The notes under the pieces were generated by a model. It had not been told where the DNA came from, did not search any database, and saw only the letters and a program-made list of their open reading frames with translations. A program made the position numbers and the translations under genes. Source: Candidatus Terraquivivens tengchongensis (GTDB taxonomy: Archaea; Thermoproteota; Nitrososphaeria_A; Caldarchaeales; Wolframiiraptoraceae). Taken from it: a DNA stretch of 64,000 nucleotides. The stretch spans positions 37,661 to 101,660 of the forward strand of contig JALNJZ010000006.1 in the NCBI GenBank assembly GCA_023261845.1. The letters run 5' to 3'. Position 1 is the stretch's first letter. Every line of letters starts with the position of its first letter. Of this stretch, positions 19,997 to 63,215 are shown piece after piece.

Positions 19997-20098
19997 TGCG
20001 GGGGGTGGGATTTGAACCCACGAACCCCTACGGGACAGGGTCTCCCATCATAAAGGAATCTGAGCCCTGCGCCGTTGACCAGGCTTGGCAACCCCCGC
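19997..20098 (-). tRNA. tRNA-Leu(CAG) with a 17-nt intron at 37/38 (20042-20058); island integration site
   Basis: GCGGGGG/CCCCCGC acceptor stem, CAGGG/CCCTG anticodon stem, long variable arm and GTTCAAATC T-loop. BHB central helix CTCA/TGGG. Confidence 0.92.
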
Positions 20099-60982: not shown

Positions 60983-62377
60983 ATGTTTAGTTTTATTGGC
61001 ATGGCAACAATAGCAACATCAGGCACCGCCTTAAGTTACACTCCAAGTTTTGAACTTTTAAATAGGTGGGTAATCGAAAAGCAGCTTTGTTGTTATTGCG
61101 GCACTTGCGCAGGCGTATGTCCTAGAATAACACTGGATGGAAAAGTTCCAAGGCTCATAAACTACTGTTCTGAGTGTGGAGACTGTTACAAGTACTGTCC
61201 CCAGACTTATGTACCTGTGAAAGAATTTGAGGAGAAGCTGTTCCCTGGCACAAACAAGGATGAATCTTTGGGATATTATGAAAAATGTATACTGGCGCAA
61301 AGCACCGACAAAAACATACTTTCCATAGCACAAAACGGAGGCTTAGTGACCACGTTATTGATTCATGCACTAGAGGCCGGGCTGATAGATGGTGCTATTC
61401 TAGCGGTAGCTGAAAAGGATTGGATGCCGAAGCCCATACTTGCCAGGACCCCTGAGGAAATAAAGAAAGCAGCCGGTTCAAAATATGTTATGTGTCCAAA
61501 TATGTTCGCTTACCGTGAAGTAATTAGTGATCCAACGGTCAAAAAGGTCGCTATCGTAGGTCTTCCGTGTCAAGTCAGAGCTGCAAGAAAGTTACAAATG
61601 GAACCTATGATTCCTGTTAAAAATGGAAAGATTGAGTTTATAATCGGGTTGTTCTGTCACAGGAATTTTTCTTACGAGGGGCTCCTCTTAGAGACCATTA
61701 AAAAGACCCTAAACATCGACCTTTCCAATATAAAGAAGTTTGATATATCAAAGGGCAAGTTGATGGTCTTTACCCAAGAGGGCAAGCAAGTAGAGCTACC
61801 AGTGAAGGAGCTTAGCAAATACTCTTGGTCGTCGTGCTCTTCTTGTACAGACTTCACGGGAAGGCTGGCGGACATATCCGTTGGTAATGCCGGCGTCATA
61901 GACCTCAACTGGAACTTGGCAATAGTCAGGTCTAAGAAAGCCATGGAACTTTTAGATAGCGCGGTAAAGGCCGGAAAGCTGAAAATAGCTGAAGGTGGAG
62001 ATGCTATAAATGCTATATTAAAAGAGGCACAGAAGAAGGCTGAGAGACGGGAAAAGGTTAGTGAAGCACTGTACCAGCATTTCTCTGAGCTCGGCGTACC
62101 TTCAGAAGACGTGCGCGTATACTTTACCCTACTAACTTCAGGAGGTGCTAGCGCTGTAGAACTCTCAAAAGCGCTCAACATTGGTGAAACAGAACTGGGT
62201 GCGATTCTTGCAAGGCTTCGTGAAAGAGGGTGGCTGGTTGAATATGGGGACCGCTACATACCTACTAGACCGTCTATCGTTCTACGAATGGAAACAGCAA
62301 AACTCCAAAACTTGATTAAGAAAGTTTTAGAGAAGGAGCCCGAGCTGGAGGGCATATACGTAAGAAAGTTTGGCTAG
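60983..62377 (+). CDS. FrhB/FdhB/FpoF-like F420-interacting Fe-S protein fused to a C-terminal TrmB-type HTH
   Basis: 2x[4Fe-4S] N-terminus, QNGGLVT, GSKY, GLPCQ, IGLFC and C..C.DF....ADISVG. C-terminal LG....RVY..LL..G..SA.ELS.......L..L.ERGW. Confidence 0.8.
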   Translation: MFSFIGMATIATSGTALSYTPSFELLNRWVIEKQLCCYCGTCAGVCPRITLDGKVPRLINYCSECGDCYKYCPQTYVPVKEFEEKLFPGTNKDESLGYYEKCILAQSTDKNILSIAQNGGLVTTLLIHALEAGLIDGAILAVAEKDWMPKPILARTPEEIKKAAGSKYVMCPNMFAYREVISDPTVKKVAIVGLPCQVRAARKLQMEPMIPVKNGKIEFIIGLFCHRNFSYEGLLLETIKKTLNIDLSNIKKFDISKGKLMVFTQEGKQVELPVKELSKYSWSSCSSCTDFTGRLADISVGNAGVIDLNWNLAIVRSKKAMELLDSAVKAGKLKIAEGGDAINAILKEAQKKAERREKVSEALYQHFSELGVPSEDVRVYFTLLTSGGASAVELSKALNIGETELGAILARLRERGWLVEYGDRYIPTRPSIVLRMETAKLQNLIKKVLEKEPELEGIYVRKFG

Positions 62378-62472
62378 CCGCAACTTCGCTTTTCCTTACA
62401 CCTCTATTTATTTAGGTATTATAGAAACGTTTACGTTAATATGTATTTCACCCGGGTTCAAAAAAATCTTAG

Positions 62473-62578
62473 CGCCCTTCGGCGGGCAGGGCTTTTTAAC
62501 CCTCCCCATGGCCGGGATTTGAACCCGGGTCCGGCGGGCGACAGCCGCCGATACTAGACCGGACTATACTACCAGGGC
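62473..62578 (-). tRNA. tRNA-Asp(GTC) with a 31-nt BHB intron in the 3' acceptor strand (68/69; 62478-62508)
   Basis: The 5' GCCCTGG pairs fully only after removing TGGGGAGGGTTAAAAAGCCCTGCCCGCCGAA, giving CCA^GGGC-G. Anticodon arm GGCGG-CTGTCGC-CCGCC. Confidence 0.88.
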
Positions 62579-62678
62579 TTCATCTGAGTGTGGCAAAAAA
62601 GAGTTTCTAAAAGCAATTCTTAAAGTTTTTCTAAGAAACGGACAAACGATTTTATCCGAGCATGAGAGCCGTAGTTGC

Positions 62679-63215
62679 ATGGAGCCGAAGGAACTTTTAA
62701 GTATAATAAAGGGAAGAAGGTCTGTTAGGAGGTTCTTGGAGAAGAAGATTCCCGACGAACATCTGAGGCTCATAATGGAGGCAGGCATATGGGCTCCGAG
62801 CGGGGGCAACATACAACCATGGCAGTTCGTTCTCGTGAGAGAACCAACATTGATAAAGAAGATAAAGCTTGTGTCTCCAGGCCTGTTTGGTAATCCTGAT
62901 GCATTAGTCGTAGCATGTGTGGACAAGAACAGGTACGAAAGAGCTGGGAAGATAGGTTATACGTTGTCGCTCATGGACGTATCCATGGCAGCCCAGAACA
63001 TGATGCTCATGGCGTATGGCCTCGGCATAGGCTCGTGTCCAATAGCATCTTTCAATAAGCTGGCGGTGAGGGAAATTCTCGAGCTTCCAGATAACTTTGA
63101 GCCCATCTTGATGATCAGCCTAGGTTATCCTGAAGAATGGCCACAACCTCCAGAAAGGAGGCCTCTTAGTGAGGTGGTTTATGTAGATGGTTACGGAAAG
63201 TATTATAGAGGATGA
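62679..63215 (+). CDS. Nitroreductase family protein
   Basis: RRSVR.F, APS.GN.QPW, AAQN..L.A...G.GSC and LGYP motifs. Confidence 0.92.
   Translation: MEPKELLSIIKGRRSVRRFLEKKIPDEHLRLIMEAGIWAPSGGNIQPWQFVLVREPTLIKKIKLVSPGLFGNPDALVVACVDKNRYERAGKIGYTLSLMDVSMAAQNMMLMAYGLGIGSCPIASFNKLAVREILELPDNFEPILMISLGYPEEWPQPPERRPLSEVVYVDGYGKYYRG

Follow-up and report, generated by a model that had tools for sequence, protein, structure and literature searches.

For archaeal tRNA introns at non-canonical positions, the reviews consulted name chiefly the D, anticodon, variable and T arms, and also the acceptor stem (PMC4090602, PMC3978253). In one of them the intron at position 3/4 of the acceptor stem in the Thermoproteales is called "an extreme case", with reference to Sugahara 2008 (PMC4090602). 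Here we describe a tRNA-Asp(GUC) gene of Candidatus Terraquivivens tengchongensis, contained in a 64,000-nt stretch of contig JALNJZ010000006.1 (hereafter the window), which is interrupted at position 68/69. Like the non-canonical introns with a motif of the bulge-helix-bulge (BHB) type, including the one at 3/4, the insertion is bounded by such a motif, half of which is supplied by an exon, and its removal would presumably involve EndA and RtcB. In contrast to the 3/4 intron it splits the 3' strand of the acceptor stem and leaves a 3' exon of 5 nt, and unlike other non-canonical introns its motif is built from the 3' strand of the T stem, for which the T arm must open.

Split tRNAs offer a second point of comparison, as a 14-bp G/C-rich stem and a 13-nucleotide pairing in trans next to the motif have been described for them (PMC3218864, in part). 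A flanking helix next to the motif, some 13-14 bp long and keeping the pieces together for ligation, is what the tRNA-Asp locus would share with split and permuted tRNAs; here, however, the two strands of the predicted helix are the 5' half of the mature T arm and the 3' trailer of the same transcript, and the helix would compete with the cloverleaf. In archaeal rRNA, flanking inverted repeats form a long processing stem that presents a BHB motif to EndA. The occurrence of BHB motifs in archaeal rRNA precursors is also mentioned in the part of the literature covered (PMC7714728). Unlike such a stem, the one proposed for tRNA-Asp would enclose only the last third of the tRNA, and the cut ends would be religated into the tRNA.

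Results

Organization of the tRNA-Asp locus

The gene is located on the minus strand of the window (Table 1), and an insertion of 31 nt splits it between A68 and G69, in the 3' strand of the acceptor stem. It is identified as tRNA-Asp by the anticodon gtc (ARAGORN) and by the G directly after C72, a discriminator that we take to be an Asp identity element. Read linearly, the gene is returned by ARAGORN as a 75-nt tRNA-Asp(gtc) at 62504-62578 and reaches 39.6 bits with the Rfam tRNA model, with non-standard pairs at 1:72 and 4:69. With the 31 nt excised in silico, all seven acceptor pairs form and the T, anticodon and D stems are complete. In order, the intron consists of a U, GGG (inner helix), a hairpin of 6 bp with AAAA as its loop, CCC, GCCG (central helix) and AA. 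C61-C65 have a double duty: in the precursor they belong to the exon strand of the splicing motif, and after maturation they make up the 3' strand of the T stem. Downstream of the gene, the U7 run in the trailer could be a transcription terminator, and the conserved box upstream is a putative archaeal promoter.

The first-pass annotation, made from the sequence of the window, had expected scanners to call the locus a pseudo-tRNA. Instead, ARAGORN gives an ordinary-looking tRNA-Asp with a wrong 3' end, and the Rfam score exceeds the cut-off. When Rfam is run at the gathering threshold over the whole 64-kb window the gene is omitted, while a 501-base slice (62300-62800) scores 39.6 bits (cut-off 29); this omission is a filter effect, and worth remembering for interrupted tRNAs.

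Table 1. Features of the tRNA-Asp(GUC) locus in window coordinates. Numbering in the tRNA runs from G1 (62578) over A68 (62509) to G73 (62473).
Feature	Position	Strand	Basis
5' exon, nt 1-68: acceptor 5' strand, D, anticodon and T arms, C66-A68	62509..62578	-	ARAGORN; Rfam tRNA 39.6 bits
31-nt intron between A68 and G69	62478..62508	-	Strict hBHBh' motif, conservation, covariation
3' exon: G69-C72 (62477..62474) and discriminator G73 (62473)	62473..62477	-	Completes 7/7 acceptor stem once the intron is excised
Exon strand of the splicing motif, C61-C66 (T-stem 3' strand and C66)	62511..62516	-	Motif pairs kept across sequences
Small hairpin from intron end and 3' exon (GCC/GGC)	62474-62483	-	Conserved along with the splicing motif
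Trailer spacer, CUAAGA and start of the U7 run (run 62466..62460)	62463..62472	-	Sequence, genus alignment
Trailer clamp UUUGAACCCGGGU	62450..62462	-	Complementary to nt 47-59 without mismatch
T-arm 5' half, A47-A59 (end of the variable loop, T-stem 5' strand, T loop); predicted clamp partner	62518..62530	-	
Upstream box AAAACTTTAAGAATTGC, about 35-50 nt 5' of G1 (putative promoter)	62613..62629	-	Conserved in 6/7 genus members

The bulge-helix-bulge motif

A strict 3-4-3 BHB motif brackets the insertion, with helices of 2, 4 and 3 bp in which all nine pairs are Watson-Crick. The outer helix has 2 bp only (C61C62/G70G71), the central helix joins C63-C66 (CGGC) to the intron GCCG, and the inner helix GGG/CCC is followed by the 6-bp hairpin; the splice sites lie inside the bulges, after A68 in C67-A68-U and before G69 in A-A-G69. 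The motif is far above chance: shuffling of the intron gave an equally good one in 112 of 200,000 cases with G-U pairs allowed, and the background rate on contig C9 for a Watson-Crick-only motif of equal quality was 3.6e-6 per pair of a 5' and a 3' site. A custom cloverleaf scorer, in which every motif-bounded deletion around each tRNA is tried and the resulting cloverleaf rated, selected 68/69 for tRNA-Asp with no prior. The same scorer recovers the canonical 37/38 introns of this genome, validating the geometry that was used.

Across 35 sequences, five of the six pairs of the outer and central helices hold throughout (one of them with two G-U pairs) and the sixth holds in 34; these helices are invariant and hence uninformative on compensatory change. 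The inner helix varies on both sides in all seven pairs of an alignment of 35 distinct sequences fitted with a covariance model, and in five pairs of an unfitted MAFFT alignment. In the window alone, a cut one base earlier at both ends (67/68) gives an identical product, because the intron ends in A. The introns of relatives end in GAU or GAG, which together with the motif geometry fixes the site at 68/69.

The small hairpin formed by the intron end and the 3' exon has a four-base loop (GAAG or GAUG) between GCC and GGC. It is conserved in other lineages too, and rivals the splicing motif in most predicted folds. In a DNA metagenome run we also observed a strain that differs at 62495-62496, in the loop of the intron hairpin, by the loss of one base and a T>C change; this fits free variation of this loop.

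Gene copy number and splicing enzymes

Of the 44 tRNA genes that ARAGORN calls in the genome (1.22 Mb in 14 contigs, 99.42% complete), only one is a tRNA-Asp. A BLAST search of the genome with the gene returned tRNA-Glu genes only as next-best matches and no second copy; this was the check on copy number proposed with the first description of the locus. Two EndA paralogues are encoded, of 189 and 183 aa (PF01974, 105.3 and 61.5 bits), both of which carry N- and C-terminal endonuclease domains. When aligned with the fused type, paralogue 1 corresponds to its C-terminal half and paralogue 2 to its N-terminal half; matches of the latter to beta-subunit models stay below the cut-offs. The two-subunit and three-unit types of EndA are credited with broad specificity in the part of the literature covered (PMC3239211). 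A gene for RtcB is present as well (578.8 bits).

Many further tRNA introns exist in the genome, including non-canonical ones in the D arm and the anticodon stem. No acceptor-stem intron was found in the other tRNA genes modelled by the cloverleaf scorer, five of these models being poor. Five tRNA-like loci on contigs C9, C6, C2 and C12 (C9:77349-77466, C9:7836-7928, C6:63537-63602, C2:43897-44002 and C12:167148-167255) have low Rfam scores or poor scorer models, and may hold several or unusual introns beyond a two-intron, strict-geometry search. BLAST of the tRNA-Asp intron against the genome found only itself (remaining matches at most 16 nt, E >= 0.29), so there is no sign of transposition from another tRNA.

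Elsewhere in the window, at 19997-20098 on the minus strand, a tRNA-Leu(CAG) gene carries a canonical 17-nt intron at 37/38 (Rfam 42.5 bits); the ARAGORN label for this gene, Ser(cga), is wrong. The suggestion that the tRNA-Asp intron interrupts a segment of the kind used as attB in tRNA-Leu, and thereby blocks integration, did not hold up: the tRNA-Leu 3' segment has no second copy in the window, within a search that short repeats could escape.

One metatranscriptome run contains the organism. In a comparison that comprised this run, two sister RNA runs and one DNA run, no RNA contig of this organism spanned the gene, and the RNA contigs matching at tRNA-Asp were the uninterrupted tRNA-Asp of other organisms.

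Conservation in the genus and the order

The comparison at the level of the order covered 41 genomes, with seven tRNA-Asp loci in the genus and 23 examined from the other ten genera. All seven genomes of the genus have the insertion at 68/69, with a length of 29-31 nt and a strict, Watson-Crick-only BHB in which all motif positions are kept; changes in the intron are restricted to the hairpin top and one bulge base. In the other genera of the order the gene is uninterrupted at all 23 loci. The first-pass annotation had taken the locus for a tRNA-Asp split at 68/69 by a strict BHB intron, with 5 nt left for the 3' exon and G as the discriminator, and the comparison bears this out.

Within the same family, the acceptor strand in four other genera is identical at 11 of 13 loci and matches with one compensated pair at the remaining two; all 13 have CCA (or CCG, with the 5' strand compensated) followed by GGGC and G, with no gap. 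Intronless orthologues with an identical acceptor score 61-65 bits in Rfam, compared to 39.6 for the unspliced gene. With the insertions removed in silico, the mature tRNA-Asp is identical at 75/75 positions in the genus members tested. The exons are invariant across the seven species, whereas the intron loop and the flanks are variable.

Two congeners show additional changes at this gene. In L006 (genome G005) a second tRNA-Asp intron of 18 nt is located at 5/6 of the 5' acceptor strand, with a strict motif (4, 2, 4) that draws on the 5' leader for its central and outer helices, and with a 5-nt 5' exon; it is the mirror image of the 68/69 case. In L007 (genome G006) there is a 30-nt insertion in the D-arm region, between 9/10 and 15/16, flanked by a 6-nt direct repeat (GTATAG) and hence ambiguous in register. 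No strict motif was detected at this insertion in the scan, and its deletion gives a mature sequence identical to that of the window. Both congeners have partial copies (7-13 nt) of the tRNA-Asp 5' end in the leader, 15-35 nt upstream of the gene, the one in L007 resembling a variant of another family; these copies may be recombination scars at the locus.

Distribution in other archaea

To look beyond the order, one genome per prokaryote species was scanned with a pattern consisting of the T loop, the T-stem 3' strand and CCA, followed by 12-42 bases and GGGCG. This gave 50 loci, among which a motif was found exactly at tRNA-Asp 68/69 in 34 (33 strict, 1 relaxed); the remaining 16 are without the motif, being either tRNA-Asp genes that are not interrupted or different tRNAs in which GGGCG occurs by chance. 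The intron was initially described with no known example at 68/69. In the literature searched this stands, but the site is occupied in at least 34 public species genomes from four lineages, as given by their titles: Hadarchaeota (Hadesarchaea), Bathyarchaeia, Nitrososphaerales and Ca. Terraquivivens. Two carriers are labelled otherwise, as Methanobacteriota and Hodarchaeaceae, the latter also sampled within the phylum Hadarchaeota.

In a sample of Hadarchaeota selected solely by the 5' two-thirds of the tRNA-Asp gene, the intron is present at 13 of 30 loci and missing from 17, and the acceptor stem is the same on both strands in all 30. A like selection in Bathyarchaeia comprised 30 loci, from which three were dropped (trailers too short) and two gave no model; the intron is present in two of the 25 evaluable loci. 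Between lineages the intron sequence varies freely except at the positions required by the motif. A covariance-model sample of the phylum of the window (151 genomes, stricter filters) matched the intron and trailer module in the window's genus only (6 genomes). As judged from the sequences, the patchy spread appears compatible with an ancient origin followed by losses, with transfer and with repeated gain. The body of the window gene (nt 1-65; L001) matches that of a Bathyarchaeia gene (L034) in 65 of 67 columns, compared to 60-61 of 68-69 columns for the sister genera of its own family (L018-L028). This may mean that the gene was replaced and brought the intron module along, but the hint is weak given how short the molecule is.

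A trailer sequence complementary to the T arm

The trailer element UUUGAACCCGGGU, to which we refer as the clamp, perfectly complements A47-A59 in the 5' half of the T arm and adjoins the U7 run. In the window the predicted duplex has an energy of -22.6 kcal/mol (z -7.3), which was equalled by none of 200 shuffles. The clamp is kept in all seven genus members. Conservation in the genus alignment spans the promoter-like box, the gene, the intron and the trailer and ends right after the clamp, past which the sequence diverges.

The trailers of intron-bearing genes contain a 9-13-nt complement of the T-arm 5' half that is rare in intronless genes. Over all loci, with energies computed against nt 46-58, the median trailer duplex was -17.4 kcal/mol for intron-bearing (n=35) and -7.55 for intronless genes (n=30), and a complementary run of at least 9 was found in 15 of 35 intron-bearing versus 0 of 30 intronless loci. 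Medians within groups were -21.3 (n=7, intron) vs -6.5 kcal/mol (n=23, intronless) in the order of the window, -17.1 (n=13) vs -7.3 (n=17) in Hadarchaeota and -20.2 (n=2) vs -6.6 (n=23) in Bathyarchaeia; the respective one-sided rank tests (4e-5, 1e-5 and 0.012) are overstated, as kin are not independent. Against shuffled trailers the median z was -3.9, and at 17 of the 35 loci none of 200 shuffles equalled the observed duplex. Intronless genes reaching -15 kcal/mol numbered 3 of 17 in Hadarchaeota and 1 of 23 in Bathyarchaeia, and two of these four have another tRNA gene immediately downstream.

A covariance model built from the clamp, the motif and the inner helix gave 47 matches of at least 34 bits, all intron-bearing, with some genomes counted under two locus ids; one further intron locus, truncated by a contig end, also matches. 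On 47 intronless loci the model returned one weak match, of 25 bits. Covariation was assessed in an alignment of 35 distinct sequences that are related and that were fitted to the proposed structure, which favours this structure: 92.5% of the cells are paired, compared to 84.6% after shuffling (0/500) and 25-56% with the partners slid. In this fitted alignment the pair between nt 47 and the trailer is C-G in 14 cases, A-U in 12 and G-C in 2, and the pair of nt 49 is C-G in 26, U-A in 4 and U-G in 4. The covariation of nt 47 is hard to explain otherwise, because this nucleotide is unpaired in the mature tRNA. From the MAFFT alignment RNAalifold recovered the T stem, the inner helix and the small GCC/GGC hairpin; the clamp pairing was absent from this consensus, in which the clamp columns are out of register.

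A T5-T7 run abuts the clamp on its 5' side in five of the seven genus members (U7 in the window), and transcripts may therefore stop short of the clamp there. Outside the genus the clamp has no T5 run in front of it at 27 of 28 loci; at 13 of the 28 such a run follows within 60 nt.

Predicted folding of the precursor

Formation of the motif demands an open T stem. With the clamp included, the conformer with the BHB is predicted at -56.8 kcal/mol and the one with the T arm at -51.6 kcal/mol at 37 C; at 75 C the values are -20.2 and -19.2 kcal/mol. With the clamp, the BHB lies 3.1 instead of 9.0 kcal/mol above the minimum-energy fold at 37 C. These predictions support a competition between the clamp and the cloverleaf. 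The minimum-energy fold of the whole precursor at 37 C differs from the strict motif. In the 3' domain of 15 representatives, the clamp helix occurs in almost all predicted folds, with the strict motif 0.7-5.3 kcal/mol less stable than the minimum; this motif is never clearly the minimum-energy prediction, and the GCC-GAAG-GGC hairpin competes with it.

Discussion

Our data make it very probable that the window contains the single functional tRNA-Asp(GUC) gene of this organism, and that this gene is interrupted by a genuine BHB intron at 68/69. A simpler reading would be that the linear 75-nt form (62504-62578) is a working tRNA with mismatches at G1:G72 and C4:U69, the rest being a trailer hairpin. 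Both ARAGORN and Rfam return this form, and the hairpin could act as a 3' structure. Yet the next five bases downstream exactly rebuild the acceptor strand of the sister genera, a strict motif surrounds the insertion in all seven genus genomes and a motif occupies the same site in the 34 genomes of the pattern scan, and the unspliced gene scores far below its orthologues (39.6 vs 61-65 bits). To our knowledge, moreover, a G1:G72 mismatch is not tolerated in elongator tRNAs. We therefore regard a functional linear form as highly improbable. No greater probability attaches to a decaying pseudogene, or to the unremoved scar of the integration of a mobile element, even though the 3' ends of tRNA genes are common integration sites according to the part of the literature covered (PMC3218864), partial copies of the tRNA-Asp 5' end occur upstream in two genus members, and the clamp repeats part of the T arm in inverted orientation. 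Against such decay stand the sole tRNA-Asp gene in a genome that is 99.4% complete, exons that remain constant in seven species as the intron loop and flanks vary, motif positions that are conserved and an inner helix that covaries across phyla; and BLAST found no copy of the intron elsewhere in the genome.

The function of the clamp is a separate question. We lean towards a precursor in which the clamp pairs with nt 47-59, the resulting long processing stem freeing C61-C66 and retaining the 3' exon until ligation. Alternatively the intron is real and the clamp has no role in splicing, being a relic of the origin of the intron, a hairpin associated with the terminator, or another signal. A T5-T7 run ahead of the clamp in 5/7 genus members, which may put it past the end of the transcript, would suit such a reading, as would the palindromic nature of CCCGGG, by which some complementarity comes cheap, and the prediction that the central helix forms at 70-75 C without the clamp. 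Less easily accommodated are the association of the clamp with the intron in four lineages and its large absence from their intronless genes, the joint change of pairing partners at nt 47 and 49, the termination of conservation exactly at the clamp end and, outside the genus, the lack of a T5 run before the clamp at all but one of 28 loci. Taken together, a clamp without a splicing role seems unlikely to us, though it deserves to be taken seriously.

From the sequence and its predicted folding we infer cleavage, ligation, the order of the steps and the role of the clamp as follows. In the precursor, the trailer clamp would base-pair with nt 47-59 of the T arm. C61-C66, released from their T-stem partner, would then pair with the intron GCCG and with G70 and G71, and the resulting strict 3-4-3 BHB would put each splice site in a 3-nt bulge. 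A putative two-subunit EndA would cleave after A68 and before G69, while the trailer helix (about 12-13 bp) would hold the fragment with the 5-nt 3' exon before joining. RtcB would ligate the 3' exon to A68, upon which the 7-bp acceptor stem and the T stem could form and the trailer could be removed behind G73, with CCA addition, where CCA is not encoded, as the last step. That splicing would precede 3' processing follows from the anatomy of the gene, and is logically sound.

More tentatively, and with slightly more doubt than confidence, the 68/69 intron and the clamp may be the two parts of one module, in which the clamp forms an rRNA-like processing stem with mature tRNA sequence. This stem would displace the T-stem 3' strand and tether the 3' exon; after splicing the cloverleaf would win and the trailer would be cut. 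The module, comprising the intron, the 3' exon and the clamp, would have been kept since before the separation of Hadarchaeota, Bathyarchaeia, Nitrososphaerales and Ca. Terraquivivens, or exchanged among them, and would have been lost as a unit.

With respect to earlier work, the 68/69 intron belongs to a known class at an unusual site, and it is already present in many public genomes, where it has probably gone unremarked. Neither the position 68/69 nor a pairing between trailer and T arm was found in the literature searched; Sugahara 2007/2008, Marck & Grosjean 2003 or GtRNAdb may list the position. As far as seen in that literature, a trailer clamp accompanying the intron is undescribed. 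So that introns near the ends are not missed, tRNAscan-SE 2.0 lengthens its candidates by 60 nt (PMC8450103, in part); introns close to the 3' end were thus anticipated, and the program may well detect the one described here. The portion of its text covered gives no intron positions and no trailer pairing, and its supplement, as searched, has nothing on positions.

The locus indicates that the archaeal splicing machinery can serve an intron five bases from the 3' end of a tRNA, in an indispensable gene. It also suggests a testable design rule, in which flanking sequence rivals the cloverleaf, displays the motif and retains a very short exon. For annotation, it means that in dozens of genomes simple scanners misplace the 3' end of tRNA-Asp. 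The finding bears on the debate over where tRNA introns persist and on the order of the steps in pre-tRNA processing, and the occurrence of intron-bearing and intronless genes with the same acceptor stem in one phylum provides a clean system for the study of intron gain and loss.
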